Origin: a virus
Taxonomy: Duplodnaviria > Heunggongvirae > Uroviricota > Caudoviricetes > Demerecviridae
DNA length: 64,000 nt
IMG/VR virus record: IMGVR_UViG_2974640449_000001
Span: 64,242 to 128,241 of that record
Direction: 5' to 3' (one strand)
A model generated the notes under the pieces. That model did no database searches, was not told the DNA's origin, and worked only from the letters and a program-made list of their open reading frames with translations. Below are positions 3,297 through 43,582 of the stretch, piece after piece (the first letter of the stretch is position 1; each line of letters opens with the position of its first letter). The translations under genes and the position numbers were made by a program.

Positions 3297-3770
3297 ATGA
3301 ATTATATGAATTACTACCCAACAGACGTAGTAAACGGAGAGGGGACGCGTTGCGTCCTCTTTGTGTCTGGATGCTCACATGGATGCAATGGCTGCTATAA
3401 TGAAGCGGCCTGGAATCCAAATAGTGGGCATAAGTTTACTAAAGAAATGGAAGACCAGATCATCCAGGATTTACAAGATACTCGTATCAAACGCAGAGGT
3501 CTGACACTATCTGGAGGCGACCCGCTTCATAAGCGTAATTTTGCGTCGGTTTTGCGCTTGTGTAAGAGAGTTAGAAAGGAATGTCCAACTAAAGATATTT
3601 GGCTGTACACAGGATATACTCTAGAGCAAGTAAAAGAGGGTCGGTTTTGTGCTATACTAGACTATATAGATGTGCTTGTTGATGGTAAATTCGAAAAAGA
3701 TCTGTATGACGCAGGGCTTAAATTCCGTGGTAGTAGTAACCAAAATATCATTTACTTAGGGAAGGCGTAA
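3297..3770 (+). CDS. nrdG: anaerobic RNR activating protein (radical SAM)
   Basis: CVLFVSGCSHGCNGCYN CxxxCxxC cluster motif; about 157 aa. Completes nrdD/nrdG. Confidence 0.85.
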   Translation: MNYMNYYPTDVVNGEGTRCVLFVSGCSHGCNGCYNEAAWNPNSGHKFTKEMEDQIIQDLQDTRIKRRGLTLSGGDPLHKRNFASVLRLCKRVRKECPTKDIWLYTGYTLEQVKEGRFCAILDYIDVLVDGKFEKDLYDAGLKFRGSSNQNIIYLGKA

Positions 3771-3797: not shown

Positions 3798-3826
3798 TTG
3801 CTTTTGTGAGTGAATTTCCGTATAAT
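3798..3826 (+). promoter_or_regulatory. early promoter TTGCTT-17-TATAAT
   Basis: aTTTGCTTttgtgagtgaatttccgTATAATtatctcataaattgaaaatggagatt. Confidence 0.55.
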
Positions 3827-3857: not shown

Positions 3858-4253
3858 ATGTTTTTAGATTACCAATTCTGCGAGAACAACCAGATATTGA
3901 TTGAGAAAATGTATCACATGAGTTCTCTTTTTACCGGACTAATGGATAGTGAAGTAGACGACCTTAATCGTGACCTTGACGGTGCTCAAAATCAGTTAGT
4001 GATTACTGACAAAACTAAGCAACTGGCTGACATACTAGACGAATGTTACGAAAATAACATGGCTAATGACGATATTTTATCTCGTCTGTACTCAGCAGGA
4101 TTTAACCGTGGTTGTGTATTTGAGCTATCAATTACTAACCCTAGCGGTATTGGTCGCTACCTGCTATATGTATACGTAGAATCTGAGCTAGAGCTGAGAG
4201 CGTATGCAGAAGAACTAGCAGCCAAGGTATGGAGCAAGCATGAAGAAAATTAA
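3858..4253 (+). CDS. hypothetical protein
   Basis: Early promoter and conserved leader upstream (3798-3857). 131-aa ORF with RBS GGAGAT. Confidence 0.5.
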   Translation: MFLDYQFCENNQILIEKMYHMSSLFTGLMDSEVDDLNRDLDGAQNQLVITDKTKQLADILDECYENNMANDDILSRLYSAGFNRGCVFELSITNPSGIGRYLLYVYVESELELRAYAEELAAKVWSKHEEN

Positions 4254-4698
4254 CAGTTTCCGAGGGGAGTATGCGTTTCTCTCTAATATGTTTGAAGTGG
4301 TAATTGAACATGACGGCATTACTTATCCTTCTAGTGAGAACATGTATCAAGCGTTCAAAGCAGAAGAAAGACGAGAACGTAAACTGATTGCTAAGTTACC
4401 TCCAAACCAATCAAAGAACTACTGGAAATTTAATCCAGTTAAAAACCAGTTATTCCATTGTAATAAACTAGTTTACATGGAGAAATGTTTACGAGCTAAG
4501 TTTGCTGACCCACACCTAGCACACTTACTACTAGCAACCGGCGACGCAGAACTAATTGAAGGTAACTGGTGGGGCGATGGTTTCTGGGGAGTCTCGGATA
4601 AAACGGGTCACGGCCATAACCACCTAGGTAAGTTACTAATGAAGCTTCGGGAGGAGATTCGTGAAAGTATTGAAGGAAAACCTACTAAAGAATCCTAA
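4240..4698 (+). CDS. NADAR (YbiA/DUF1768) domain protein, N-glycosidase / ADP-ribosyl hydrolase family
   Basis: FRGEYAFLSNMF...YPSSENMYQAFKA, CLRAKFADPHLAHLLLATGDAELIE, NWWGDG...GHNHLGKLLMKLREEI align with E. coli YbiA blocks. Confidence 0.8.
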   Translation: MKKINSFRGEYAFLSNMFEVVIEHDGITYPSSENMYQAFKAEERRERKLIAKLPPNQSKNYWKFNPVKNQLFHCNKLVYMEKCLRAKFADPHLAHLLLATGDAELIEGNWWGDGFWGVSDKTGHGHNHLGKLLMKLREEIRESIEGKPTKES

Positions 4699-4891
4699 AT
4701 TAAAGTGTGGGGTAGGCTTGCGAACTGCCACACCTGATGAAGTAGCAGAAATGAAAAAGTGGCTAGATTTTCATGGTATTCAATATGTGCATCAAACCAC
4801 TCATCTAAAAACAGGCAATCCTTTACCTTACAATGGCTTGCTTATTATCAATATCATAGGAACTAAAAAGAATGCTAAAAATTTATACTGA
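4661..4891 (+). CDS. hypothetical protein (76 aa)
   Basis: ORF only; overlaps its neighbours. Confidence 0.3.
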   Translation: MKVLKENLLKNPKLKCGVGLRTATPDEVAEMKKWLDFHGIQYVHQTTHLKTGNPLPYNGLLIINIIGTKKNAKNLY

Positions 4892-5330
4892 CGGAGCTTG
4901 CCGTGGCAACCCAGGCGTAGGTGCTTGGGCTTTCGCTGTTTTCGAGGGCTGGGCTAAGAAAGGTACTAAAAGCGCAGCTATGCCACACACTACAAACAAT
5001 GAGGCTGAACTTACAGCCATTGTAAAAGCGTTAGAGTGGGCTATTCGTGCTAACCTATCTCAAGTAGAGATTCTTACAGACTCTAACTACGCATGTCAAG
5101 GTTATAAGACGTGGATGCACGGTTGGGTAAAGAAAGGCTGGGTGACTGCGGGAGGTACTCCAGTCAAGAATCTAGAACTTTGGAAGACTCTATATAATAT
5201 TTCTCAAAAAATTGATGTAACCATGACAAAAGTCAAAGGTCACTCTGGTGATGAAGGTAACGAGCTAGCAGATACTCTATGTAATTGTGCAATTGATGAG
5301 TATGAGCTACAGACAGTGGTGATGAAATAG
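4872..5330 (+). CDS. rnhA: ribonuclease HI
   Basis: MLKIYTDGACRGNPG, NNEAELTA, ILTDSNY, HSGDEGNELADTL: RNase H DEDD residues in the canonical order. Confidence 0.8.
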   Translation: MLKIYTDGACRGNPGVGAWAFAVFEGWAKKGTKSAAMPHTTNNEAELTAIVKALEWAIRANLSQVEILTDSNYACQGYKTWMHGWVKKGWVTAGGTPVKNLELWKTLYNISQKIDVTMTKVKGHSGDEGNELADTLCNCAIDEYELQTVVMK

Positions 5331-9347: not shown

Positions 9348-9424
9348 TGCGAGAATGGAGAAATGGCGTCTTGCGAGGTTCATATCCTCGATAACGGGTG
9401 GTTCGAATCCACCGCTCGCATCCA
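9348..9424 (+). tRNA. tRNA-Met/Ile2 (anticodon CAT)
   Basis: Anticodon arm CGAGG-TTCATAT-CCTCG, T arm GGTGG-TTCGAAT-CCACC, 3' CCA encoded. D arm is irregular. Confidence 0.6.
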
Positions 9425-9430
9425 AATTAT

Positions 9431-9507
9431 GCGCGTGTAGCTCAGTTGGTTAGAGCATCTGACTTTTAATCAGGTGGTCGAAGGTTCGAGTCCTTCTACG
9501 CGCACCA
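9431..9507 (+). tRNA. tRNA-Lys (TTT)
   Basis: GCGCGTG acceptor, TAGCTCAGTTGGTTAGAGC D arm, loop CTTTTAA, T arm TTCGAGT, CCA. Confidence 0.8.
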
Positions 9508-9513
9508 TACAAT

Positions 9514-9590
9514 TCTCGGGCAGACCATCTGGTTGAGTCACTACCCTTTCAAGGTAGGATTAGCGGGTTCAATTCCCGTCCCGAGAACCA
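9514..9590 (+). tRNA. tRNA-Glu (TTC)
   Basis: Acceptor TCTCGGG/CCCGAGA, anticodon arm CTACC-CTTTCAA-GGTAG, T arm GCGGG-TTCAATT-CCCGT, CCA. Confidence 0.65.
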
Positions 9591-9596
9591 AATTAC

Positions 9597-9673
9597 GGGG
9601 AATTAGCTCTAATTGGGAGAGCATCTGCTTTGCACGCAGGGGGTTATCGGTTCGAATCCGTTATTCTCCACCA
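9597..9673 (+). tRNA. tRNA-Ala (TGC)
   Basis: GGGGAAT acceptor, loop TTTGCAC, TTCGAAT T loop, CCA. Confidence 0.8.
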
Positions 9674-9679
9674 AATTAT

Positions 9680-9756
9680 AGAGGCTTGGCTGAGTTGGTT
9701 ATAGCGACTCCTTCATGCGGAGTAAGACGGGGGTTCAAGTCCCTCAGCCTCTACCA
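9680..9756 (+). tRNA. tRNA-Met (CAT)
   Basis: Acceptor AGAGGCT/AGCCTCT, anticodon arm ACTCC-TTCATGC-GGAGT, TTCAAGT T loop, CCA. Confidence 0.7.
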
Positions 9757-9764
9757 AGAACAAT

Positions 9765-9854
9765 GGTTGAATGCGACGAATTGGTAAGTCAGCGGATTGT
9801 AAATCCGTAGTCACCGAAAGGGGCATCTAGGTTCAAGTCCTAGTTCAACCACCA
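9765..9854 (+). tRNA. tRNA-Tyr (GTA), type II
   Basis: GGTTGAA acceptor, loop TTGTAAA, long variable arm, T arm CTAGG-TTCAAGT-CCTAG, CCA. Confidence 0.75.
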
Positions 9855-9860
9855 AATTTT

Positions 9861-9936
9861 GGGGAATTAACTCAGTGGTTAGAGTGGCGTCCTGTTAAGT
9901 CGCTGGTCGGTGGTTCGAGTCCACCATTCCCCGCCA
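9861..9936 (+). tRNA. tRNA-Asn (GTT)
   Basis: GGGGAAT acceptor, loop CTGTTAA, T arm GGTGG-TTCGAGT-CCACC, CCA. Confidence 0.8.
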
Positions 9937-9943
9937 AATTAAT

Positions 9944-10021
9944 GCGACTGTGGTCTAGTGGTTTAGGATACCTCCCTGTCACGGAGTGTGGTCGTGGGTT
10001 CAAATCCCATCAGTCGCGCCA
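9944..10021 (+). tRNA. tRNA-Asp (GTC)
   Basis: GCGACTG acceptor, loop CCTGTCA, TTCAAAT T loop, CCA. Confidence 0.8.
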
Positions 10022-10027
10022 AATTAT

Positions 10028-10104
10028 CTCTCCTTAGCTCAGTCTGGTAGAGCGTCCCGTTTGGGGCGGGAAGGTCAAACGTTCGAATCGTTTAGGGGAG
10101 ACCA
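10028..10104 (+). tRNA. tRNA-Pro (TGG)
   Basis: TAGCTCAGTCTGGTAGAGC D arm, loop TTTGGGG, T arm AAACG-TTCGAAT-CGTTT, CCA. Confidence 0.75.
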
Positions 10105-10404
10105 AATGAAGAAACAGTATCCTTGCTCAAATGGATACTCACTGAGGGACGAGCAATCCCAATATGTGCGGGCTGTCTAGCATATGCAGCTTTCGGTTGA
10201 AGCCACATGTTTAGTAATGCGAACCCATTAGCTGAGGCTTGGGAGCTCGCCCCTTACTCGGTTAAGTCCAAGAACCGCTGTGGAATATGTAAAGTCGTGA
10301 TTCCTTCGGGATAGCGCCTTCGGAAGTTATCTTCTGACTGCTAGCAAGTCCATAGCTATAAACCGTGACGAAAGGCAGCTCACGGGGCAGTGCAAAAGAT
10401 AATT
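10105..10404 (+). ncRNA. candidate structured non-coding RNA inside the tRNA block (about 300 nt)
   Basis: No ORF and no cloverleaf. Multiple hairpins: AGTATCC...GGATACT, TTCG tetraloops (gcagctttcggttgaagc, ccttcgggatagcgccttcggaag). Flanked by tRNA-Pro and tRNA-Leu. Confidence 0.35.
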
Positions 10405-10408
10405 TAAT

Positions 10409-10495
10409 GCAGGAGTGGCGTAATTGGTAGCCGCGCTGGATTTAGATTCCAGTGGTCTTAGTACCGTGAGGGTTCAAGTCCCTCCTCCTGTACCA
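10409..10495 (+). tRNA. tRNA-Leu (TAG), type II
   Basis: GCAGGAG acceptor, loop ATTTAGA, long variable arm, T arm GAGGG-TTCAAGT-CCCTC, CCA. Confidence 0.8.
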
Positions 10496-10568
10496 AACAA
10501 TGCGGGAACCAGAGTTAATAATTGCAGTTGTTAAGCAGCGATAGCTAACTCTCCCGCGCCAAATAAAT

Positions 10569-10662
10569 GGAAGGGCAATCCGATGGTTGGCGACGGAACT
10601 GGTCTTGAAAACCAGCGAGTGCTAATAGCGCCTTGAGAGTTCGATCCTCTCTCCTTCCGCCA
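10569..10662 (+). tRNA. tRNA-Ser (TGA), type II
   Basis: GGAAGGG acceptor, loop CTTGAAA, long variable arm, T arm GAGAG-TTCGATC-CTCTC, CCA. Confidence 0.7.
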
Positions 10663-10669
10663 AATTAAT

Positions 10670-10756
10670 GCGTACTGAAGACTGAGCGGTCGGTCACTAG
10701 CCTTCCAAGCTAGCGCCCTTAATCGGGATAGGGTTCGACTCCCTCTGTACGCTCCA
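10670..10756 (+). tRNA. non-canonical type II tRNA-like gene, anticodon TCC (Gly reading) with a long variable arm
   Basis: Perfect anticodon arm CTAGC-CTTCCAA-GCTAG, T arm AGGG-TTCGACT-CCCT, acceptor GCGTACT/TGTACGC with a T-T mismatch, variable arm CCC-ttaatc-GGG, CCA. Confidence 0.5.
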
Positions 10757-10774
10757 AATTACTTAAAAATGGAA

Positions 10775-10803
10775 TTGCTTAAAACGTTAAATCAACGTAT
10801 AAT
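10775..10803 (+). promoter_or_regulatory. early promoter (TTGCTT-17-TATAAT) with conserved leader fused directly to tRNA-Thr
   Basis: ggaaTTGCTTaaaacgttaaatcaacgTATAATagttccataaagttgagaaac. Confidence 0.6.
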
Positions 10804-10827
10804 AGTTCCATAAAGTTGAGAAACAAA

Positions 10828-10903
10828 GCTTCTTTAGCTCAGTTGGGAGAGCAGCTCACTTGTAATGAGCAGGTCGTCCGTTCGAATCGGACAAGGAGCA
10901 CCA
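10828..10903 (+). tRNA. tRNA-Thr (TGT)
   Basis: GCTTCTT acceptor, loop CTTGTAA, T arm GTCCG-TTCGAAT-CGGAC, CCA. Confidence 0.8.
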
Positions 10904-10922
10904 CTTTACTACGGAGAAGATT

Positions 10923-11105
10923 ATGATTTATTTCAAAAATAAAGCAGGAAAACTTGGTGTAGTATCTTTCGATGATGCAGAATACGAACTCCAAGCCGTA
11001 CAAAACCCAAAAGAGTTACACAAAGATGTAACCGTAGCTGTAAGAGGACTTCCTAAAGACTGTCTTCCGGCAGAAAAGACTGCGTTCTTAACTGTAGTCA
11101 AATAA
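10923..11105 (+). CDS. hypothetical protein (60 aa)
   Basis: RBS GGAGAAGATTATG; lies between two tRNAs. Confidence 0.4.
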   Translation: MIYFKNKAGKLGVVSFDDAEYELQAVQNPKELHKDVTVAVRGLPKDCLPAEKTAFLTVVK

Positions 11106-11112
11106 GAATAAT

Positions 11113-11189
11113 AGGGGATTAGCTTAGCTGGCCGAAAGCAACGGACTTTGAATTCGTGACCGCAGGTTCGAATCCTGCATCCCCCGCCA
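11113..11189 (+). tRNA. tRNA-Gln (TTG)
   Basis: D arm GCTT-AGCTGGCCGA-AAGC, anticodon arm ACGGA-CTTTGAA-TTCGT, T arm GCAGG-TTCGAAT-CCTGC, CCA. Position 1-72 is an A-C mismatch. Confidence 0.7.
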
Positions 11190-11498
11190 TCTTTTGGGTA
11201 CTAAGCGTAACATATAACTATGTAGTGAAAGTAGCTTGTTACAATCCTAGGTGAATGCGCTAATACACTCTAGACCCAAATACAATACGGAGAGTCACTA
11301 CCGTACTAATCAAAAGTGTGAGCTTGAAAATTACTCTATTGTGAACGTGCTATGCTTCATCGGAAGCCTCTAACGACGGATGTACTTACCGCTGCATTTG
11401 CAAGTAACCAGTTTCATTGTATCATAAAGCCTCCAAGTAGTGGTTATGACCGAGAATAAGCCTAATAACGAGGTCGGGTATAGAGGATAAAATATTTC
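11190..11498 (+). ncRNA. candidate non-coding / structured RNA region in the tRNA block (about 300 nt, no ORF, no tRNA)
   Basis: ORF-free; sits between tRNA-Gln and tRNA-Val. Confidence 0.25.
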
Positions 11499-11574
11499 AC
11501 TCCCTTAGCTCAGTGTGTAGAGCACCTCCCTTACAAGGAGGGGGTCGTTGGTTCGAATCCAGCAGGGAGTACCA
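11499..11574 (+). tRNA. tRNA-Val (TAC)
   Basis: TAGCTCAGTGTGTAGAGC D arm, anticodon arm CCTCC-CTTACAA-GGAGG, TTCGAAT T loop, CCA. Confidence 0.75.
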
Positions 11575-11745
11575 TTTCATTTGCATTCTCATGTTATATA
11601 ACGTCTCAGGTCGTGCTGAGGTTATAGAAGCACCCTATACAGAGTAGTGACTGTGGGGAAGAGCTGTGTGCGGACAACACTAGGAAGCATGGGGTTTGAT
11701 AGAGAGTGTCATTGAAATGGTAACACAATAACAAAGGATGAAGAT

Positions 11746-12153
11746 ATGCAACTCGATGAAATGCAAGCTAAATTGTTAGAAGTACGTAAGGCTCGTAACG
11801 CCGTAGGTAAATCTGTTATGCAGTCTCTTATCGCAGACTTCGACAAGCAGGCTCGTACTGGTAAAGAAGTTGACGGTATGGCTCTTATCAAGAAATACTT
11901 AGCTAATGCTAATAGCAACTATGACCTAGAAGTACAGCGAGGCAACACTGCAAAAGCCGAAGAAACATATGGTAAAGAAATTGAGTTCCTAGAATCTCTA
12001 CTACCAAAGCAGCTAACCCAAGCAGAGCTTCGTAACATTATCGAAACTGGTAACTTTGCCAATATCGGTGAAGTAATGAAATTCTTACGCTTCAATTACC
12101 AAGGTCGTTATGACGGTAAAGCAGCGTCAGCTATTGCTAAGGAAGTTCTATGA
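11746..12153 (+). CDS. GatB/YqeY-domain protein
   Basis: 135 aa with the YqeY-like layout (LLEVRKARN...EFLESLLPKQLTQAELRNIIE...GEVMKFL...GRYDGKAASAIAKEVL), embedded among tRNA genes. Confidence 0.55.
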   Translation: MQLDEMQAKLLEVRKARNAVGKSVMQSLIADFDKQARTGKEVDGMALIKKYLANANSNYDLEVQRGNTAKAEETYGKEIEFLESLLPKQLTQAELRNIIETGNFANIGEVMKFLRFNYQGRYDGKAASAIAKEVL

Positions 12154-12380
12154 ACGAAGTAGAATTAAAAGTACGACAAGACCTTATCGACTCGGAGCTT
12201 AAATCTATCTCTGACAGCACAAAGGTACTGATGAGTCGTAAGAGAAAGCTAGAAAGTGAAAAAGCACGGTTGCAGGCAATCCAACAAACAGCGTGTGACC
12301 ACCCACGAGAAGCACGCGATTTCGTTATGGTTAATAATGAACCCGAATACTTCTGTACATTGTGTGGTAAAGATTTTTAA
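12150..12380 (+). CDS. hypothetical protein with C-terminal CxxC...CxxC zinc ribbon
   Basis: 76 aa; ACDHP...CTLCGK. Confidence 0.45.
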   Translation: MNEVELKVRQDLIDSELKSISDSTKVLMSRKRKLESEKARLQAIQQTACDHPREARDFVMVNNEPEYFCTLCGKDF

Positions 12381-12388
12381 TTAACAAT

Positions 12389-12464
12389 ATTGGGTAGCAT
12401 AATGGTATGCGGCAGGTCTCCAAAACCTTGCATGGAGAGGGTTCGATTCCCTCACCCTTTGCCA
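12389..12464 (+). tRNA. putative tRNA-Trp (CCA), atypical
   Basis: D arm GCAT-AATGGT-ATGC, anticodon loop CTCCAAA, T arm GAGGG-TTCGATT-CCCTC, CCA. Acceptor ATTGGGT/ACCCTTT has two T-T mismatches and the anticodon stem has a bulge. Confidence 0.45.
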
Positions 12465-12480
12465 AAAATAAAGAGGAAAT

Positions 12481-12768
12481 ATGGACGCAGCTAAAAGAAA
12501 ACGCGAAAGAGAAAAGCGTGATCTGGGCATGGCTCCATCTACTGCCAGAGATAGGCTAATGAAAAAGTTAGTATTCTCTCATATACAGTCCAGAGGTATA
12601 GTATGCCACCACTGTGGTAAAGAAATGACAGTAGACACTTTCTCCATAGAGCATATTAAGCCTTGGAGAGGTGAACCGAATGCAGCAGAACTGTACTTCG
12701 ACCTAGATAATGTAACATATAGTCATCGTTCTTGTAACTACAAATTTACCAGACAAAATGGCTACTAA
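12481..12768 (+). CDS. HNH endonuclease
   Basis: CHHCGK...EHIKPW...N...HRSCN: the HNH C..C / EH / N / H..C motif set. Confidence 0.7.
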   Translation: MDAAKRKREREKRDLGMAPSTARDRLMKKLVFSHIQSRGIVCHHCGKEMTVDTFSIEHIKPWRGEPNAAELYFDLDNVTYSHRSCNYKFTRQNGY

Positions 12769-12774
12769 AACAAT

Positions 12775-12850
12775 ACTTCCGTAGCTCAGTTGGTAGAGCG
12801 TTCGACCGATAATCGAAGGGTCACTGGTTCAAGTCCAGTCGGGAGTACCA
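12775..12850 (+). tRNA. tRNA-Ile (GAT)
   Basis: TAGCTCAGTTGGTAGAGC D arm, anticodon arm TTCGA-CCGATAA-TCGAA, T arm ACTGG-TTCAAGT-CCAGT, CCA. Confidence 0.75.
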
Positions 12851-12868
12851 ATTTAAATAAGGGCTAGT

Positions 12869-13039
12869 ATGAAACTATCAATGATTTCACCTCATACCGA
12901 GATTAGAGTACATCGCTACTCTAAGCAGCAAGGAGAGTTGCGCAATAAGCTCAAAAAGTGGAAGAAACAAGGAAAAGTAATACTAGTCAAAACGACAGCG
13001 ACAGAGTTCATCTACAAAAAATACTGTCGCTGGTTATAG
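12869..13039 (+). CDS. small basic protein (56 aa); not in ORF track
   Basis: RBS AAGGGCTAGTATG; MKLSMISPHTEIRVHRYSKQQGELRNKLKKWKKQGKV... Confidence 0.3.
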   Translation: MKLSMISPHTEIRVHRYSKQQGELRNKLKKWKKQGKVILVKTTATEFIYKKYCRWL

Positions 13040-13114
13040 TCCCTTTAGCTCAGTGGTTAGAGCGTCCGGCTCATAACCGGAGGGTCACTGGTTCAAGTCC
13101 AGTAAGGGGCACCA
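13039..13114 (+). tRNA. tRNA-Met (CAT), third CAT tRNA
   Basis: TAGCTCAGTGGTTAGAGC D arm, anticodon arm CCGGC-TCATAAC-region with CAT, T arm ACTGG-TTCAAGT-CCAGT, CCA. Confidence 0.7.
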
Positions 13115-13243
13115 TATTGCAATAGCACAACCCCGTGCTTGGGCGGTGTTCACTCAAGAATCGTAGTCAGTGAACTAAGTAATAAAAACTAGGGGATCGT
13201 AGCATCCGCCCACCAATTATTATAATTATCATGGAGATACTAT

Positions 13244-13420
13244 ATGAAAACAGCTAATCTACTAAAGTTCGCAGCAGAAAAACCATTCGTAGTTAACCGC
13301 CACAAGCGTTCTCAAGAAAAACTACGCTCTCAATGCCAACGTCTTGTTAAATCAGGTCGTCTAGTAGAAGTTGAAAAGACACATGACCAAGTCATGTATC
13401 GTACTCCAGTAACAGAATAA
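13244..13420 (+). CDS. small basic protein (58 aa); not in ORF track
   Basis: RBS ATGGAGATAC; MKTANLLKFAAEKPFVVNRHKRSQEKLRSQCQRLVKSGRLVEV... Confidence 0.3.
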   Translation: MKTANLLKFAAEKPFVVNRHKRSQEKLRSQCQRLVKSGRLVEVEKTHDQVMYRTPVTE

Positions 13421-13421
13421 A

Positions 13422-13497
13422 GCGGGAATAGCTCAGCAGGTAGAGCACTTGGTTGAAGACCTTGGTGTCGCTGGTTCAACTCCAGCTTCCCGCACCA
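13422..13497 (+). tRNA. tRNA-Phe (GAA), weak anticodon stem
   Basis: GCGGGAA/TTCCCGC acceptor, TAGCTCAGCAGGTAGAGC D arm, loop TTGAAGA, T arm GCTGG-TTCAACT-CCAGC, CCA. Confidence 0.65.
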
Positions 13498-13505
13498 CTA
13501 ACAAT

Positions 13506-13583
13506 ACACGACTAGCTCAATTGGATAGTAGCAGCACCCTACGAAGGTGAAGGTTCGGGGTTCGAGTCCCTGGTCGTGTGCCA
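13506..13583 (+). tRNA. tRNA-Arg (ACG)
   Basis: ACACGAC/GTCGTGT acceptor, TAGCTCAATTGGATAG D arm, loop CTACGAA, TTCGAGT T loop, CCA. Confidence 0.7.
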
Positions 13584-13603
13584 ATTTAAAGAGAGAAGAT
13601 ATT

Positions 13604-13888
13604 ATGGCAATCCCCTCAGCAAAAGAATTAACTCAACGTATTGCACTAGATAATGCAGGTAAAGCTCTAGAAGCTGAAAAGGCTCTAGAAGTGGCGTTTA
13701 AGCGAGTAGAATCTATTCCTAGAAATGGAGTCTTCGATATAAGCGTTGGATTAGGTAGTACACATAAAGCTGTTATGGAAGAGCTTTTGCGTAAAGCTGG
13801 ATACCACTTAATATCTATTCACTTCTCTACGTGGCGTAACGAACCTTCAGCACAGATTCGTTTACAAATACCACCACAAGCAGAATAA
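13604..13888 (+). CDS. hypothetical protein (94 aa)
   Basis: Track ORF 13547 overlaps tRNA-Arg. Start moved to ATG 13604 behind RBS AGAGAGAAGAT. Confidence 0.45.
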   Translation: MAIPSAKELTQRIALDNAGKALEAEKALEVAFKRVESIPRNGVFDISVGLGSTHKAVMEELLRKAGYHLISIHFSTWRNEPSAQIRLQIPPQAE

Positions 13889-13890
13889 TT

Positions 13891-13980
13891 GGAGAGATGC
13901 CCGAACTGGTTAAGGGAGCTCCCTGCTAAGGAGTCGGCTGCTAACACGGTCTGTGGGTTCAACTCCCACTCTCTCCGCCA
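13891..13980 (+). tRNA. tRNA-Ser (GCT), type II
   Basis: GGAGAGA/TCTCTCC acceptor, loop CTGCTAA, long variable arm, T arm GTGGG-TTCAACT-CCCAC, CCA. Confidence 0.8.
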
Positions 13981-14109
13981 ATTAATATCCTAGTAACCGC
14001 TAGGGAGTCCACGAGAACTCATAAGGATGCTCGAAGATGCTTTATTATTATAACGATTTTTCTCGAATAGAAACTGTAACTCCTGTTACGGTCACACTAG
14101 GAGAGAAAC

Positions 14110-14313
14110 ATGGATCGAAGACATAAACTAAGAGTAAACTGGCATCGACGTCTTAAAGACGATGAAATTGCAATTGAGAATGGTTTTACCACACGCTTGT
14201 TCAAGCAAACCGAAGTCTATATGTACGACTTATCTTGGTGGGATTACCCACGCAGAACACTTGAGCGTAGTTGGAAAAACCAATCTAAAAAACGTAAACA
14301 ATGGGAACGCTAG
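14110..14313 (+). CDS. hypothetical protein (67 aa, basic)
   Basis: RBS GGAGAGAAACATG. Confidence 0.35.
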   Translation: MDRRHKLRVNWHRRLKDDEIAIENGFTTRLFKQTEVYMYDLSWWDYPRRTLERSWKNQSKKRKQWER

Positions 14314-14341
14314 ACGTTCCCATTTATTTTGAGGAAAAATT

Positions 14342-14722
14342 ATGAGATGGTTTTTTAATAAAGAAAAAACAGAACAAAAAGAAGAGCCTAACGTACCCAT
14401 GCTTGAAAAATATGCTACATCTCTTCCAAGGAAAGAAGACTTATCAGCATACCAGGAGGAGCTCTATCAATACTTCAAAAAAGTAGTAGATACTACTCTG
14501 AGGGAGGCGATAAATAATCACATTAAACCTAAGGATACCTTTCCTTTAAGTATACCAAGGGATAGCTTAAACGTACCTACTGAGGTGTTTAGTTACGTTA
14601 TTCCTAGGCTTCTAAAAGAGAAGGGGTATTCAGTTACACGCTATAGCGAGACAATTACTTTTCCACATGGCGTGTGCCACGAGTACCTACTATTATTAAA
14701 TGAAACAACTTCTCAGGAGTAA
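14342..14722 (+). CDS. hypothetical protein
   Basis: 126-aa ORF, RBS GAGGAAAAATTATG. Confidence 0.45.
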   Translation: MRWFFNKEKTEQKEEPNVPMLEKYATSLPRKEDLSAYQEELYQYFKKVVDTTLREAINNHIKPKDTFPLSIPRDSLNVPTEVFSYVIPRLLKEKGYSVTRYSETITFPHGVCHEYLLLLNETTSQE

Positions 14723-14724
14723 AT

Positions 14725-15273
14725 ATGAAACATCAAATCTATCTAGCAGGTGACATGCTAAACCGTGGTGCTCAACTTCAACGAGCAGAAGAAAAACGTG
14801 ACTTACTTAATCTAGGTTATGACTTATACGTGCCTCAAGATAATAAAGAGATTAATGATAAAGAAAATCTCAACTCGAATGATGGTCTAGCAGAAAAAAT
14901 TGTTCGTGCAGATACTAATGGCATTATGCAGTCTGACATAGTGGTTATGGAAGCCCGTGAAGCAGCATTGGGTACTTGTATTGAACTTGGTCAGATTAAA
15001 GGTATGAAAGACGTCGCTAAAACAGTCTTGTCTATGCTAGAGTCTGGTTGCTCTCTTAAAGAAGTAATTCATAATATGGAGCAAATTCGTGATAAGCTTG
15101 TTCTAGTTCACAACTCAGATATTCGCCGAGCAGGTAATCCTACCGAAACAGGCGATCGTCGCTCTTATGCTCCTCACCAGTACATGTATGGCGTAGTGCT
15201 TGATGTTACTAACGGGCACGGCTACTATGATTGGGGTGAAATTACATACATTCTAGATAAGGACAACGCATAA
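14725..15273 (+). CDS. nucleoside 2-deoxyribosyltransferase-like protein (Ndt/DNPH1 family)
   Basis: N-terminal MKHQIYLAGDML motif typical of the family; 182 aa. Confidence 0.45.
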   Translation: MKHQIYLAGDMLNRGAQLQRAEEKRDLLNLGYDLYVPQDNKEINDKENLNSNDGLAEKIVRADTNGIMQSDIVVMEAREAALGTCIELGQIKGMKDVAKTVLSMLESGCSLKEVIHNMEQIRDKLVLVHNSDIRRAGNPTETGDRRSYAPHQYMYGVVLDVTNGHGYYDWGEITYILDKDNA

Positions 15274-15899
15274 TGTTAGAGAAGATTTGGTCAGCATTAG
15301 CAGTCCTATTAGTAATGGCTGCTTGTCTTATTTCGGGGGCGGATTTATTCGTATCTGCCTTATCTTTAGTGGGTATTCTATTTGTACTTGGAGTTTCCTT
15401 CAAGCACCCTGAATCCCAATTGCTAGGAGCAGTCTTCTGTGCATTCCTAGCATTTGCCTCCTTTGGGGCTGGCTTTTACGCTAATGCCTTAGTTAATGGA
15501 GCTTTTTTACTTCCTGCATCTATATTTGGTTACTTTTATTGGAAACGCCGAACGGGCGCAGGGAATCTTGAGCGGAGTCTCACTTCAGAACAGTTTGGAA
15601 AAGTGGCAGCCATTATTGCGGTTGCAACTATCATAACGTTCTACTTTACTATAGGAGCTGGCGGAGCACTTCCTTTTATGGATGCACTGACTGCGGTAAT
15701 GCCAGTGGCAGCCACCCTATTAATGATTGGAGCTTATCGTGACCAATGGCTATTATGGATACCTTTCAATGCAATCCAAGCCTTTATGTGGTTCTCGGCA
15801 GCCTCTTTACAACCCGCAGTATTAGCTGTGTTTGTATTAAAAATGGTCTTTCTAGTCAACTCAGTGATTGGATACTATCAATGGAGAAAGGGGGCGTAA
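15273..15899 (+). CDS. multi-pass membrane protein, PnuC-like nicotinamide riboside/NMN transporter candidate
   Basis: 208 aa, about 6-7 hydrophobic helices with Trp-rich segments (FGYFYWKRR, WLLWIPFNAIQAFMWF). Confidence 0.45.
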   Translation: MLEKIWSALAVLLVMAACLISGADLFVSALSLVGILFVLGVSFKHPESQLLGAVFCAFLAFASFGAGFYANALVNGAFLLPASIFGYFYWKRRTGAGNLERSLTSEQFGKVAAIIAVATIITFYFTIGAGGALPFMDALTAVMPVAATLLMIGAYRDQWLLWIPFNAIQAFMWFSAASLQPAVLAVFVLKMVFLVNSVIGYYQWRKGA

Positions 15900-15921
15900 G
15901 CCTCCTTCTTAAAAGTTTTAT

Positions 15922-15950
15922 TTGCTAAACTCTCTTATTTAACGTATAAT
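15922..15950 (+). promoter_or_regulatory. early promoter TTGCTA-17-TATAAT
   Basis: tTTGCTAaactctcttatttaacgTATAATtattacataaatt. Confidence 0.55.
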
Positions 15951-15981
15951 TATTACATAAATTAATGAGAGAGGTTATCAA

Positions 15982-16242
15982 ATGATTGACACTTGGGAAT
16001 GGGCAGAAGTTGCCGCACATATTTTAGGTCTTCCAGAAGAAACTGATGAAGAAGTAGTTGAACGAGAACTCCTCCAAGAGTTCGGTCTAGACTTGGAATG
16101 TTTTGGCAACATTGCCGATAAGCTCCTTGGCATGACCGTGCCTGTTGAAACAGCTCTAGGTGGCTCTATTGTACAAGCATTTGTTAAATTCGAAGACACC
16201 CATGTAAGAGCACTAGCTAAGAAGGATTTCAAACGTGATTAA
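15982..16242 (+). CDS. hypothetical acidic protein (86 aa)
   Basis: ORF behind promoter 15922. Confidence 0.45.
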   Translation: MIDTWEWAEVAAHILGLPEETDEEVVERELLQEFGLDLECFGNIADKLLGMTVPVETALGGSIVQAFVKFEDTHVRALAKKDFKRD

Positions 16243-16382
16243 ACTATCTTTACAACAAGCAGAAACTATGCTAGCTCTTCTTAATGACATTGAAGAAGAG
16301 AAAGGCAATCTACTTCCCCAAGAAGAAGAATTACAAGCCTATCTTGACGCAGCAATTGATGCTGAAAAAGATAAAAACTGAA

Positions 16383-16411
16383 TTGCTAAACTGCTTTAAA
16401 GTCTGTATAAT
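16383..16411 (+). promoter_or_regulatory. early promoter TTGCTA-17-TATAAT with leader, upstream of tRNA-Cys/His
   Basis: aaTTGCTAaactgctttaaagtctgTATAATagttccataaagttga. Confidence 0.6.
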
Positions 16412-16437
16412 AGTTCCATAAAGTTGATTAAACAAAT

Positions 16438-16514
16438 GGGTTGTATGCTGAAGTGGACGAAGCGCGGGATTGCAAACCCCGTCTTACTCGGTTCGAGTCC
16501 GAGACTTCCCTCCA
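16438..16514 (+). tRNA. putative tRNA-Cys (GCA), atypical
   Basis: Anticodon arm CGGGA-TTGCAAA-CCCCG, T arm CTCGG-TTCGAGT-CCGAG, CCA. Acceptor GGGTTGT/ACTTCCC has two T-T mismatches. Confidence 0.45.
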
Positions 16515-16520
16515 AACAAT

Positions 16521-16598
16521 GGTGTTAGTAGCTCAAATGGATAGAGCCCCTGCTTGTGACGCAGGAGGTTGCGGGATCGTACCCCGTCTAACACCCCA
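16521..16598 (+). tRNA. tRNA-His (GTG) with an encoded G-1
   Basis: G-1 paired to C73, TAGCTCAAATGGATAGAGC D arm, anticodon arm CCTGC-TTGTGAC-GCAGG, CCA. Confidence 0.8.
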
Positions 16599-16606
16599 AA
16601 TTTAAG

Positions 16607-16810
16607 GTGATAGTAGTGATTAAGAAAATCATTCGTCGTAATAAACAAAAATTTACTGCAATCTTCAAAGAAGGTCGCAGAATGTTCCCGAAAGGTGAGT
16701 TCAACAATGTAACTTACCTAGGACAGTCCAACGGTATGAATCTATTTCGTGCTGATGAAGGCTTTGCTTACAAAGGCATGACTTTCTGTAACGAAGCGAC
16801 TTGGTCTTAA
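16607..16810 (+). CDS. hypothetical protein (67 aa), GTG start
   Basis: ORF between tRNA-His and tRNA-Arg; RBS AAGG. Confidence 0.35.
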   Translation: MIVVIKKIIRRNKQKFTAIFKEGRRMFPKGEFNNVTYLGQSNGMNLFRADEGFAYKGMTFCNEATWS

Positions 16811-16820
16811 ACAAATTAAT

Positions 16821-16897
16821 GCGCCCTTAGCTCAGCTGGATAGAGCACGTCCCTTCTAAGGATGTGGTCGTAGGTTCGAATCCTACAGGGCGTGCCA
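16821..16897 (+). tRNA. tRNA-Arg (TCT)
   Basis: GCGCCCT/AGGGCGT acceptor, TAGCTCAGCTGGATAGAGC D arm, loop CTTCTAA, T arm GTAGG-TTCGAAT-CCTAC, CCA. Confidence 0.8.
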
Positions 16898-16916
16898 TTT
16901 TCTATTGGAGAAGATA

Positions 16917-17081
16917 ATGTTCACACTAGGCGTAATATGGCTTATTTTTCAAGGTATAACTTGTACTGCTCTAGCTGATTGTAAAAGTGAAGACATGTGT
17001 AATAAAATTATGTGGATGCCAACGATAGTACGTTGGATTATCTTTACTGTCCCGTCCTTAGTCGTATGGGCTAATAAATAA
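16917..17081 (+). CDS. small membrane protein (54 aa); not in ORF track
   Basis: RBS ATTGGAGAAGATAATG; MFTLGVIWLIFQGITCTALADC... Confidence 0.3.
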   Translation: MFTLGVIWLIFQGITCTALADCKSEDMCNKIMWMPTIVRWIIFTVPSLVVWANK

Positions 17082-17092
17082 CGGAGAAGATT

Positions 17093-17422
17093 ATGTTTAC
17101 TAGAGAACAAAAATACGTTGTAATATCTCTTAGAGATATTCGTGAAGGACTAGATGAAGGTCAAAAAATGGCTTTAGCTGGTCTACTATCAAAGATGGAA
17201 AACCATCGTAAAGCTCGTGGCAGAGAGCCAATTGAAGCAGTAGTTATTGACAAAAACACTCTAGGTGAACTACCGTATGAGGACGGTTTCAAAATTGTTG
17301 AATCAGCAGTACATGCAAAACATCAACGAAACTGCGAACATACATATAAACGTGACATTGCAGTTATGGGTGGTCTAGACGTACTAACCTGTACCAAATG
17401 TGGTCACGTAGAACTTGAATAA
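17093..17422 (+). CDS. hypothetical protein with C-terminal zinc ribbon (C..H..C..C)
   Basis: 109 aa; RBS GGAGAAGATTATG. Confidence 0.45.
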   Translation: MFTREQKYVVISLRDIREGLDEGQKMALAGLLSKMENHRKARGREPIEAVVIDKNTLGELPYEDGFKIVESAVHAKHQRNCEHTYKRDIAVMGGLDVLTCTKCGHVELE

Positions 17423-17427
17423 ACAAC

Positions 17428-17514
17428 GCTGGCGTGGTGGAATTGGTAATACACGTGGGGCTTAAAACCCCATGCCCTAGAGGATTGAGAGTTCGAGTCT
17501 CTCCGCCAGTACCA
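17428..17514 (+). tRNA. tRNA-Leu (TAA), type II
   Basis: GCTGGCG/CGCCAGT acceptor, anticodon arm TGGGG-CTTAAAA-CCCCA, long variable arm, T arm GAGAG-TTCGAGT-CTCTC, CCA. Confidence 0.75.
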
Positions 17515-38204: not shown

Positions 38205-38205
38205 A

Positions 38206-38234
38206 TTGCCAAAGCAAGGAAGCTTTGATATAAT
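38206..38234 (+). promoter_or_regulatory. early promoter TTGCCA-17-TATAAT
   Basis: aaTTGCCAaagcaaggaagctttgaTATAATatctgtagaaattgaggagatt. Confidence 0.5.
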
Positions 38235-38259
38235 ATCTGTAGAAATTGAGGAGATTGTT

Positions 38260-40567: not shown

Positions 40568-41437
40568 ATGTCAAATATTAGCATTATGTGTAATGGTTCT
40601 AAATCTTACGAACTACAAGTAGGCTTCACTAAGTTCTCAGATGGAGCAGAAACCTGTACTATTCGCAAGACTAATGTAGACCTTACACAATCAACCTTTG
40701 TATGCGTGTCAGTTAAGTTTAAAGACGTTACTCGTGATATTGTACGTCTACTTCTGGTAAAAGACGCACTAGACCAAATGCGTGCTGAAACCTGTATCAA
40801 CTGGAAACGTATCGCCCTAAATATGCCATACATCCCTAACGCCCGCGCTGACCGTAAGTTTGGTTTCGGTATGCCGATGCCAATGAAAGTCTTTGCTAAC
40901 CTTATCAATGCAATGGACTTCGATGAAGTAATGGTAGAAGACCCTCACTCAGATGTTAGTGTAGCATTAATCAATAATGCTACTGTACTAGACCAAGCAT
41001 CCTTGGTTAGCATGATGGAGCCTCATATTAATCGCTATATGCCAGAGTTTACTTTGTGTGCTCCAGACCTTGGTGCTGCTAAGAAAATCTTTGATGTAGC
41101 GTTTGCTCTAGAAAAACGAGACTGGATTCAGGGTCTAAAAATCCGTGATGTACTTACTGGCGACATTGTTAAGTGTGACCTAGTGCAAGATGAAGTGCCT
41201 GAAAATGTGTTAATTGTAGACGATATTTCAGATGGTGGAGCTTCATTCAAGTTCTTGGCTAAGAAACTAAAAGAGCGTGGAGCTAAGAAAGTAGGTCTAT
41301 ATGTTACTCATGGTATCTTCTCTAAAGGGCTAGACCCAATCCGTGAAGATATTGACTATGTATTCATTCATAACTTTATTGGTGGTTATATCAATGAAGC
41401 TAATGTACTAGCATTCAACGAAGGTAAAGATGTATGA
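40568..41437 (+). CDS. ribose-phosphate pyrophosphokinase (Prs)-like protein; candidate ADPR-pyrophosphate synthetase (NARP1 Adps-like)
   Basis: PRPP-type nucleotide-binding loop VLIVDDISDGGAS; 289 aa; adjacent to the macro and NAMPT-like genes. Confidence 0.65.
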   Translation: MSNISIMCNGSKSYELQVGFTKFSDGAETCTIRKTNVDLTQSTFVCVSVKFKDVTRDIVRLLLVKDALDQMRAETCINWKRIALNMPYIPNARADRKFGFGMPMPMKVFANLINAMDFDEVMVEDPHSDVSVALINNATVLDQASLVSMMEPHINRYMPEFTLCAPDLGAAKKIFDVAFALEKRDWIQGLKIRDVLTGDIVKCDLVQDEVPENVLIVDDISDGGASFKFLAKKLKERGAKKVGLYVTHGIFSKGLDPIREDIDYVFIHNFIGGYINEANVLAFNEGKDV

Positions 41438-41910
41438 TTAAAGTAGTAAAAGGTGATATGGTCAAACACCTACAATCAAAAGACCATCTAGATGCATACG
41501 CTCACCAGTGTAACTGTTTTTGTAGAATGGGGAGAGGCATTGCGCCTCTTCTAGCTAAAGCAGTTCCTGGTCTTAGACAGGCAGACGATATGACTGTGCC
41601 TGGGGATAAATCTAAGTTGGGTAGTGTGTCTTTAGCTGCACATCCCAACGGTGCAGTAGTATTCAATGTATATGGACAATATCATTGGCACGCTCATAAA
41701 GTAGCCCCAGGTAGAAATACTGACTACGATGCGCTAGAGAAAGGGCTGTGGAGAGTGTTAGCGGATATGCTAAAAGACGACATGAAAACGTTGGGTTTAC
41801 CTCTGATTGGTTGCGGTCTAGCAGGGGGTGATTGGGATAATGTAGTGCTCCCAATGATTCACAAAGTATTTGATAATTCAGGCGTTGACGTAACTATTTT
41901 TAAATTGTAA
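41434..41910 (+). CDS. macro-domain protein (ADP-ribose binding / hydrolase fold)
   Basis: AHQCNCFCRMGRGIA ~ macro NAANxxLxGGGGVxxAI; PLIGCGLAGGDW ~ macro FPAISTGIYG. Confidence 0.6.
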   Translation: MIKVVKGDMVKHLQSKDHLDAYAHQCNCFCRMGRGIAPLLAKAVPGLRQADDMTVPGDKSKLGSVSLAAHPNGAVVFNVYGQYHWHAHKVAPGRNTDYDALEKGLWRVLADMLKDDMKTLGLPLIGCGLAGGDWDNVVLPMIHKVFDNSGVDVTIFKL

Positions 41911-41920
41911 TTGCTTAACT

Positions 41921-41949
41921 AGCTAAATTTACGTATAATATATTCATAA
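41921..41949 (+). promoter_or_regulatory. early promoter TTGCTT-17-TATAAT
   Basis: aaTTGCTTaactagctaaatttacgTATAATatattcataaattaaagagaagga. Confidence 0.55.
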
Positions 41950-41971
41950 ATTAAAGAGAAGGAAATAATCT

Positions 41972-43582
41972 ATGTCATACAACATCCCTTACCTAGCAGC
42001 ACTTATCACTGACGGCTACAAAGTATTCCACCCGTTTGCTTACCGCCTAGGCACTACTCATGTATACAGTAACGGTACTGCCCGTTTTAATAAACACTCG
42101 AACGTACCAAATAACGCTGAAATCGTTCACTTTGGTATCCAAATGGCTCTACAGAAGCTAAACACATTGTGGAACGAGAACTTCTTCAAACACCCTAAAG
42201 AAGCAGTTCTAGCAGAATACCAACGTGTTATCTCTGGCTACCTAGGCAAGAAAATTAGCGTAGACCATATTGCTAAACTACACGATGTTGGTTATCTGCC
42301 AATCGAAGTTAAGTCACTACCCGAAGGTTCTCTTGTACCTTACGGTGTGCCACCATACACTATTCATAACACTGTGGAAGGTCTAGGTTGGGTGACTAAC
42401 TTGCTAGAAACTCCATTCAGTGCTGAATATTGGCCAGCAGTAACATCTGCAACTACTGCGTTTGCTTACCGCTCTCGCTTTGAACAAGTACCTGCACTAC
42501 GTGCTGGCGGCATGATTAAGTTCATGGGTCACGACTTCTCTGCTCGTGGACTATGGGGTATGTTTGCACCAGAGCAGAATGGTCACTTGACTTCATTCGT
42601 CGGTACAGACTCTATGGTATCAGGTCTAGCAATGGAACAATACTATGATGCTCGTATCGACAAAGAGCTAGTAATGGCTTCTGTTGATGCTACAGAACAC
42701 TCAGTAATGTGTTCATACGAAACAGAGAACGAGCTAGAATCATTGATTCACTTGATTAGCAACGTTACTCCAAACGGTATTATCTCTATCGTTTCGGACA
42801 CATGGGACTTCTGGCAGTTGGTAACTCAATACCTACCACAAATTAAAGACCTAATCATGTCTCGTGATGGTACAGTGGTTATTCGCCCAGACTCAGGCGA
42901 CCCAGTTGAAATCTTGTGTGGTTTGGAAAAACACCCTTACTTCTACGATACTATCGACGAAGCATACGCTAAACTTGACGGCTTCTTTGAAGTAGAAGGT
43001 AAAGTTGTAGATATTGCAGGACAGTGGCGTCGTGCGTCTATCAATCTAGATGGACGTGTTGGTTTTGGTAAACCAATTCCAGAGCACGAAGTGAAAGGTC
43101 TAGTAGAATGTCTATGGGATACCTTCGGTGGTACAGAAGTTGATGGTCTACGTCTACTAGATTCACACATTGGAGCTATCTACGGTGACTCTATTACTCT
43201 AGAACGTCAAGACCAAATTATTAATCGTTTGATTGCTAAAGGTTTCGTTCCTAGCGTAGTCCTTGGTATTGGTTCGTTCACATACCAGTACGTTACTCGT
43301 GATACTCACGGCTTTGCTATTAAAGCTACTGACATTCAAGTTGGTGAAGGCAATCACATTGCTATTAGCAAAGACCCTAAAACTGACCAGAGCAAAAAGT
43401 CTGCTAAAGGCTTGCTGATGGTCGTAAAAGACGGCGATAGCTACCGTCTAGTGGCAGACGTTACTCCAGAGCAGGAAGCTTCTGACGAAAACTGCCTAAA
43501 AACTATCTTCAAAGACGGTGAGTTCGTTAAACGTACCTCACTTGCTGAAATCCGTGCTCGAATTGACTCGCATTTCGAATAA
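41972..43582 (+). CDS. nadV: nicotinamide phosphoribosyltransferase (NAMPT/NadV) family protein; candidate Namat of a NAD+ reconstitution pathway
   Basis: N-terminal ALITDGYKVFHPFAY ~ NAMPT LLATDSYKVTHYKQY; 536 aa. Confidence 0.8.
   Translation: MSYNIPYLAALITDGYKVFHPFAYRLGTTHVYSNGTARFNKHSNVPNNAEIVHFGIQMALQKLNTLWNENFFKHPKEAVLAEYQRVISGYLGKKISVDHIAKLHDVGYLPIEVKSLPEGSLVPYGVPPYTIHNTVEGLGWVTNLLETPFSAEYWPAVTSATTAFAYRSRFEQVPALRAGGMIKFMGHDFSARGLWGMFAPEQNGHLTSFVGTDSMVSGLAMEQYYDARIDKELVMASVDATEHSVMCSYETENELESLIHLISNVTPNGIISIVSDTWDFWQLVTQYLPQIKDLIMSRDGTVVIRPDSGDPVEILCGLEKHPYFYDTIDEAYAKLDGFFEVEGKVVDIAGQWRRASINLDGRVGFGKPIPEHEVKGLVECLWDTFGGTEVDGLRLLDSHIGAIYGDSITLERQDQIINRLIAKGFVPSVVLGIGSFTYQYVTRDTHGFAIKATDIQVGEGNHIAISKDPKTDQSKKSAKGLLMVVKDGDSYRLVADVTPEQEASDENCLKTIFKDGEFVKRTSLAEIRARIDSHFE

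Follow-up and report, generated by a model that had tools for sequence, protein, structure and literature searches.

Orphan NADAR proteins of phages, termed AdfN, counter the DarTG1 defence system (Johannesman et al., Nat Commun 2025, PMC11825919). In E. coli, DarT1 is neutralised by two unrelated orphan members, AdfN-Bas32 of the T5-like phages Bas32/33 and AdfN-Bas60 of phi92-like phages, both of which also restore plaquing of RB69, T5 and Bas25 on cells carrying DarTG1, not on those carrying DarTG2 (PMC11825919). AdfN-T4 (T4 gp30.3, PF08010) has guanosine-ADP-ribose (G-ADPr) hydrolase activity and an anti-DarTG1 role, and its counter-defence is lost in the E36A and K43A mutants (PMC11825919). 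Members of all four NADAR families cleave G-ADPr in vitro, on RNA as well as DNA, and only the Glu-class families also remove cytidine-ADPr (C-ADPr) (PMC11125620, PMC12945103). E. coli YbiA likewise hydrolyses G-ADPr, yet neither YbiA nor the T4 NADAR rescues DarT1 toxicity outside infection, and G-ADPr hydrolysis in vitro is therefore no guarantee of protection in vivo. For Vibrio, DarTG1 has been stated to occur in Vibrio cholerae (Schuller et al.), and the sole experimentally described Vibrio DarTG is of the macrodomain type, whose thymidine modification is not reversed by NADARs. We looked for DarT1 in V. harveyi/campbellii and other Vibrio and found none that had been demonstrated.

The gp81 gene and its neighbourhood

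The DNA analysed here is a window of 64 kb, which starts at position 64242 of a 128,241-bp phage record and runs to the end of that record; all positions are given in window numbering. The 3-kb region around the gene of interest is 100% identical to Vibrio phage Ceto (NC_042094.1 / MG649966.1), a lytic, T5-like phage of V. harveyi BAA-1116 that is placed in Demerecviridae, Ermolyevavirinae, Cetovirus. The gene, gp81 (YP_009621169.1, 4240..4698, plus strand), encodes a stand-alone NADAR-domain protein of 152 aa that consists of the core fold only. Its deposited label is "hypothetical protein", and the GenBank records of the sister phages VF16 and KIT04 already carry the orthologue as "NADAR family protein". 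The phage annotation also includes 25 tRNAs together with RNA-ligase/phosphoesterase genes, and a PnuC-like transporter.

The gene sits in a tight block of four, gp80 to gp83, all on the plus strand. The first, gp80 (3858..4253, 131 aa, phrog_18867), and the third, gp82 (4661..4891, 76 aa, phrog_13465), are of unknown function and have no Pfam match. The fourth, gp83 (4872..5330), is an RNase H (PF00075, E=6.5e-38). The gp80 and gp81 frames overlap by 14 nt, and a Shine-Dalgarno-like GGAG, read from the sequence at 4231..4234 (plus strand), lies within the 3' end of gp80 and 5 nt 5' of the gp81 ATG, an arrangement that suggests translational coupling. Upstream of the block, in the 87-nt gap after nrdG, we read a possible sigma-70-like promoter at 3798..3826 on the plus strand (TTGCTT, a 17-nt spacer, and TATAAT at 3821-3826). 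It is a candidate only: a consensus promoter scan upstream of gp80 gave nothing convincing, as the -35 hexamer matches the consensus at just 3/6 positions.

The original prediction placed the NADAR gene next to RNase HI. An RNase H gene does lie in the same block, but gp82 stands between the two, overlapping the 3' end of gp81 by 38 nt and the start of the RNase H gene by 20 nt, and the proximity is a feature of the lineage. The block of NrdG, a gp80-like gene, NADAR, the 76-aa ORF and RNase H is kept in Pontus, VF16, PVo5 and KIT04 and largely in JSF12, and gp82 orthologues in PVo5, Pontus, VF16 and KIT04 share 68-83% identity. We found no gp82 homologue at the JSF12 or Bas32 loci; a gp80 homologue adjoins the NADAR gene in neither phage and is kept only in close Vibrio relatives. 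With conservation limited to the close Vibrio clade, gp80 and gp82 were rejected as NADAR partners. The RNase H gene fares no better as a functional link. It is absent beside the NADAR gene in KLPPOU148, Sano and Daubenski, the unrelated phages that carry the closest homologues, and the NADAR homologues of unrelated phages lie between helicase and primase genes (one phage) or among early hypothetical genes. The proximity of NADAR and RNase H is lineage-specific synteny, confined to Demerecviridae.

No toxin or ADP-ribosyltransferase (ART) gene adjoins gp81, and no ART is annotated across the 64-kb window, which makes gp81 an orphan NADAR in a lytic Demerecviridae genome. The gene is real and conserved. 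A NADAR protein of at least 60% identity is encoded in 52/52 phage records that match the region at the DNA level, and pairwise dN/dS among six NADAR orthologues is 0.05-0.16 (dS being saturated in the deepest pairs), which places the gene under purifying selection.

The nearest experimentally described counterpart is AdfN-Bas32. Bas32 is Escherichia phage IrisVonRoten (Markadamsvirinae), and its only NADAR, bas32_0066, lies two genes downstream of RNase H in an RNR/DHFR/TS/RNase H module. It shares 35% identity with gp81 (E=1e-24), or 37% in the tree comparison below, and the RNase H proteins of the two genomes share 46%. Each of the two NADARs is an orphan of about 150 aa, limited to the core fold and encoded in the RNR/RNase H early module of a lytic, T5-like member of Demerecviridae. 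They differ in gene order, as the NADAR gene precedes RNase H in Ceto and follows it in Bas32.

Fold, family membership and active site of gp81

The prediction of a NADAR protein aligning with E. coli YbiA was borne out. Residues of gp81 match the Pfam NADAR family (PF08719 / DUF1768) at 69.5 bits (cutoff 35.1, E=5.3e-19) over profile positions 9-163 of 163, and a phmmer search of PDB sequences aligns residues 8-141 with YbiA (2B3W, E=2.3e-13). PF08719 was the sole Pfam family reported, with no match to PF08010 (Phage_30_3), and the PHROG match is phrog_1017. Modelling with AlphaFold2 from an alignment of 47 sequences (pLDDT 95.4, pTM 0.88) predicts a YbiA-like fold with an alpha-helical core and two small flanking beta-sheets. 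In Foldseek comparisons the model scored TM 0.83 against YbiA and 0.76 against the NADAR-ADPr complex of P. nicotianae (8BAU); of the 60 predicted viral structures matching it at E<=0.001, nearly all are named NADAR.

Within the superfamily, gp81 has neither the N-terminal beta-beta-alpha extension, with its basic DNA groove, of DarG1-type proteins nor an adjacent DarT1 gene. It also lacks the fold extensions and insertions of PnNADAR (8BAU) and S. coelicolor SCO5665, members of the stand-alone 'NADAR' family, from which several ADP-contact residues are also changed. With DarG1 (BC4488 family; G. lovleyi 8BAT, E. coli C7) it shares the superfamily fold, equivalents of E88, K95 and K115 and, as predicted from its sequence, guanine-N2 de-ADP-ribosylation. 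Unlike gp81, YbiA is chromosomal, sits in a LexA-controlled dinG/ybiB neighbourhood and passes TIGR02464, the riboflavin N-glycosidase equivalog model, with 169.5 bits against a cutoff of 73.7; gp81 scores 52.0 and AdfN-Bas32 66.3, both below it.

In a neighbour-joining tree, 96/100 bootstraps supported monophyly of the Vibrio clade, and 76/100 a wider group in which AdfN-Bas32 and generic phage-type homologues joined it, to the exclusion of YbiA and PnNADAR. Exclusive orthology of gp81 and AdfN-Bas32 was not supported, the two forming a sister pair in 0/100 bootstraps, and each averages about 47% identity to the generic phage-type members. Ceto hits served as seeds for the sampling, so the tree should be read as no more than indicative.

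We mapped the active site by aligning the family profile with 8BAU, whose seqres numbering is the paper numbering + 2, and with the 47-sequence alignment; the roles of the residues follow the structures and mutants reported by Schuller et al. 2023 (PMC11543638). The glutamate that positions the distal ribose, E43 in PnNADAR and E88 in E. coli C7 DarG1, is E33 in gp81. The essential phosphate-contacting lysine (PnNADAR K50, C7 K95) corresponds to K40, and the lysine required for in vivo rescue (PnNADAR K75, C7 K115) to K59. The catalytic acid (PnNADAR E125, C7 D171) is E107. D113 and W116 take the places of PnNADAR D130, which makes a water-mediated phosphate contact, and W133, which contacts phosphate. 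All six are thus present, and gp81 lacks none of the catalytic acidic or basic residues of characterised NADARs. In the 47-sequence family alignment S15, E33, K40 and E107 are invariant or nearly so, S15 being the superfamily-wide serine of the conserved Ser/Glu/Lys trio (S69/E87/K94 in SCO5665).

Mutants of two relatives bear on these positions. E36 and K43, at which AdfN-T4 is inactivated as described above, correspond to E33 and K40, and in SCO5665 both E167D and E167Q, at the position of E107, abolish activity. The superfamily is divided by the residue at this last position, PnNADAR E125: the "NADAR" and YbiA families have Glu, DarG1 has Asp and T4-type proteins have His. With E107, gp81 belongs to the Glu-class and carries neither the DarG1-type Asp nor the T4-type His. 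AdfN-Bas32 is also Glu-class; it shares with gp81 the E/K/K/E/D/W residue set, the 'LIEGNxWGDxxWGV' motif and the phage-type clade. The likeness to AdfN-T4 extends to orphan status, a length of 152 aa and the conserved Glu and Lys, but sequence identity is only 19%, and AdfN-T4 differs in its His at the E125 position, in being closest to DarG1, in its failure to remove C-ADPr and in working in a Tevenvirinae context only.

The other half of the pocket is less conventional. At positions that contact adenine, the proximal ribose and the pyrophosphate in PnNADAR, the Vibrio clade has G78->W62, R79->K63 and Y84->K68, with further changes at D86->L71 (D, N or Q in relatives), W89->F72 and R93->K76. 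It also has two small insertions, one extra residue in the contact loop, where the alignment may be off by about one residue, and "DKT" before the GxG motif. The "GR...(D/N)W" motif is retained in generic phage homologues, AdfN-Bas32 and YbiA; Bas32 has the canonical 'GR...DW' ADP-binding motifs where the Vibrio clade reads 'WK...(L/D/N/Q)F'. Given these substitutions, recognition of the ADP moiety may differ in the Vibrio clade. The changes are fixed under purifying selection, so an alternative pocket looks likelier than decay.

The macro domain and the NARP1-AP operon

The original prediction also pointed to a macro domain at 41434 and proposed that the phage carries two distinct ADP-ribose-processing folds. 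Both folds are there, but the macro domain belongs to another system and does not supply a second de-ADP-ribosylase. It is the middle gene of a NARP1-AP operon (40568..43582, plus strand), which we recognised from Pfam matches and from identity to Vibrio phage Gary. The operon comprises Adps, a PRPP-synthetase-like protein (40568-41437, 90.0% aa identity to Gary), Adpp, the macro-domain protein (41434-41910, PF01661 E=1.8e-7, 88.0%), and Namat, which is Nampt-like (41972-43582, 90.5%); all three genes are on the plus strand and follow the order of the Gary operon. Osterman et al. cloned this three-gene operon from Gary and showed that its macro protein, KNV71_gp137, removes the phosphate from ADPR-1''-P to yield ADPR, and that aRES and Nezha defence are both overcome by the operon (bioRxiv 10.64898/2026.01.28.702374).

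By sequence, then, the macro protein of Ceto is Adpp, the ADPR-1''-phosphate phosphatase of NARP1-AP. A role as an independent macromolecular de-ADP-ribosylase was rejected on its place within NARP1-AP and its close identity to the Gary protein. NARP1-AP and gp81 are separate systems, each serving a different, already described counter-defence. Adpp is also recognised by the PADLOC model for the DarG macrodomain (E=4.5e-12).

Proposed role of gp81 and alternative substrates

From the fold, residues, clade, conservation and orphan status described above, we propose, with a probability of roughly 0.6, that gp81 is an orphan, stand-alone NADAR ADP-ribosyl N-glycohydrolase and acts as an AdfN-type counter-defence enzyme against DarTG1. 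The protein would be made from the early/replication block gp80-gp83, with early expression predicted. On phage DNA it would cleave the N-glycosidic bond that joins ADP-ribose to N2 of guanine, a substrate suggested by homology and residue conservation, and so undo the mark written by host DarT1-type guanine-specific ADP-ribosyltransferases. The replication block imposed by DarT1 would then be lifted and phage DNA replication could proceed. The released ADP-ribose might, speculatively, feed the phage's own NARP1-AP pathway. The anti-DarT role that had been predicted for gp81 is thus supported by homology, with orphan phage NADARs, including that of T5-like Bas32, having proven activity (PMC11825919), and the reading matches a published mechanism within the same phage family. 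The idea itself is no longer novel, since it has been shown for homologous phage NADARs in the literature of 2023-2026 and sister phages are already annotated.

It is possible, if rather unlikely, that gp81 de-ADP-ribosylates nucleic acid at a target other than the guanine-ADPr that DarT1 leaves on DNA, such as C-ADPr, guanosine-ADPr on tRNA or mRNA, or adducts of other ARTs (pierisin/ScARP-like, YarT/Rhs-type or an undescribed Vibrio system). The Glu-class to which gp81 belongs clears both C-ADPr and G-ADPr from DNA and RNA, and C-ADPr is left in place by the Asp-class (DarG1) and the His-class (T4). The remodelled adenosine/pyrophosphate subsite, found across the Vibrio clade, is the main reason that alternative substrates stay in play. 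Such a target would also suit a phage with many tRNAs and RNA-ligase/phosphoesterase genes whose host lineage has no demonstrated DarT1. Nevertheless, phage NADARs have been shown to act in vivo only against DarTG1, C-ADPr is without a known physiological role, and gp81 lies in a block for DNA replication and nucleotide metabolism, not beside the RNA-repair genes.

A further reading, which we regard as quite improbable, concerns the Vibrio-Ermolyevavirinae clade as a whole. Having kept the catalytic and distal-ribose site and altered the adenosine/pyrophosphate subsite, these proteins may have shifted in specificity to another ribosyl-nucleobase adduct made by an undescribed Vibrio ART defence. 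Together with NARP1-AP they could perhaps form a loop in which nucleic acid is repaired and the NAD+ consumed by the toxin is restored.

The altered ADP-binding side of the pocket could also be read as a sign that gp81 acts on small molecules instead of macromolecules, hydrolysing N-glycosidic ADPr-derived immune signals or metabolites and possibly yielding ADPR for NARP1-AP. This would accord with the contextual proposal of the Aravind laboratory for phage NADAR, Macro and SLOG domains (PMC9503650), with the heavy investment of the phage in NAD+/ADPR metabolism (NARP1-AP, the PnuC-like transporter) and with NadD(NMNAT)-NADAR fusions in cellular homologues. We consider it very unlikely, as degradation of signalling nucleotides has been shown for no NADAR, all those tested act on nucleobase-ADPr, and the NARP1-AP operon is 36 kb from gp81 and not co-located with it.

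That gp81 is a YbiA-like housekeeping N-glycosidase destroying reactive riboflavin-pathway intermediates (5-phosphoribosylamino-pyrimidines) is highly improbable, given its score below the TIGR02464 cutoff, its separation from YbiA in the tree, the absence of annotated riboflavin genes (ribA/ribD) from the 64-kb window and of any fusion link to them, the lack of an obvious benefit to a lytic phage, the origin of such annotations in the 'ribA/ribD-fused' family name and not in evidence, and the cleavage of G-ADPr by YbiA itself.

If gp81 is indeed an anti-DarTG1 enzyme, AdfN counter-defence would extend from coliphages to marine T5-like phages of Vibrio. The NADAR gene is core in the Vibrio T5-like phages, being present in every record compared, and occurs in only a subset of the T5 relatives that infect E. 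coli and Salmonella. Its core status would then imply that guanine-targeting DNA ADP-ribosylation is a persistent source of selection within Vibrio populations, a point that would bear on phage therapy and on biocontrol in aquaculture. A single lineage would also pair a nucleic-acid de-ADP-ribosylase with extended NAD+ reconstitution through NARP1-AP, covering two NAD+-dependent defences. The current understanding of NADARs is unchanged by gp81, and the pocket changes of the Vibrio clade offer a natural variant for studies of substrate recognition in this family.

The Vibrio clade itself has no close cellular counterpart among the best 80 matches of a contig scan with the Vibrio-clade NADAR alignment, which share at most 48% identity and include no Vibrio genome. 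The nearest non-Vibrio homologues of gp81 lie on phage or jumbo-phage-like contigs. Clustering of the neighbours at 79 cellular loci gave no recurrent partner (at most 4 loci per family) and no ART, and its sole notable item was the occurrence of NadD(NMNAT)-NADAR fusions among the cellular homologues.

The gp81 pocket loop and adjoining reading frames

In gp81, the NADAR-domain protein of Vibrio phage Ceto, the presumed adenosine/pyrophosphate-binding loop (residues 59-76; nt ~4414-4467, plus strand) carries 'SKNYWK...xF' in place of 'AKRxGR...DW', and a 'DKT' insertion occupies residues 119-121 (nt 4594-4602, plus strand). The remodelled loop and the insertion are both clade-wide, being fixed across the NADARs of the Vibrio Ermolyevavirinae.

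The next gene, gp82 (4661-4891, plus strand), is an ORF of unknown function that starts with GTG and codes for 76 aa. It overlaps the 3' end of the NADAR gene by 38 nt and the start of the RNase H gene by 20 nt. Its length is constant at 76 aa in close Vibrio relatives, with identities of 68-83%; the corresponding loci of the comparison phages JSF12 and Bas32 yielded no homologue. Upstream lies NrdG, the anaerobic ribonucleotide reductase activase, deposited as a 107-aa CDS (3447-3770, plus strand). A longer, 157-aa ORF beginning at 3297 (3297-3770, plus strand) spans the whole Fer4_12 profile (1-137), and 157 aa is also the annotated length of NrdG in sister phages. From these sequence comparisons the deposited CDS appears to lack its N-terminus.

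NADAR and NAD+ metabolism

An Oscillospiraceae MAG encodes a NadD-like nicotinate-nucleotide adenylyltransferase domain fused to NADAR (L031:1572-2633), and similar proteins occur in three other cellular loci. In these fusions NADAR forms the C-terminal part and belongs to the same phage-type group.

The three-gene NAD+ reconstitution operon NARP1-AP of Ceto (Adps, macro-domain Adpp and Namat; 40568-43582, plus strand) shares 88-90.5% identity with its counterpart in Vibrio phage Gary, which has been characterised by experiment. The deposited names are, in order, 'ribose-phosphate pyrophosphokinase', 'hypothetical protein' and 'nicotinamide phosphoribosyl transferase'. Adpp also matches the PADLOC model of the DarG macrodomain (E=4.5e-12). 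Immediately 5' of the operon sits a PagP-like ORF (40075-40500, plus strand; lipid A acylation/antimicrobial-peptide resistance) with a signal-peptide-like N-terminus, an unusual cargo for a lytic phage.

Twenty-five tRNA genes form an array (~9348-17514, plus strand) in which small ORFs, an HNH endonuclease and an ORF annotated 'tRNA amidotransferase' are scattered. Also embedded in it are two neighbouring genes, whose annotations are nucleoside 2-deoxyribosyltransferase and PnuC-like nicotinamide mononucleotide transporter (14725-15899, plus strand). This pair is an additional phage investment in NAD+/nucleoside salvage.

RNA-repair-like genes and the right-hand end

Two genes annotated as RNA ligases and an ATPase/phosphoesterase pair form an RNA-repair-like set (37278-39500 and 46337-47323, plus strand). 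The Aravind laboratory has proposed that NADAR or macro proteins also process by-products of RNA repair; if this is true, the set could be of relevance.

Towards the right-hand end the GC skew changes sign within ~54000-58000, and from about 56289 onwards the coding strand turns to minus (gp205-gp215). This switch marks the passage into the terminal, pre-early-like region of a T5-type genome.
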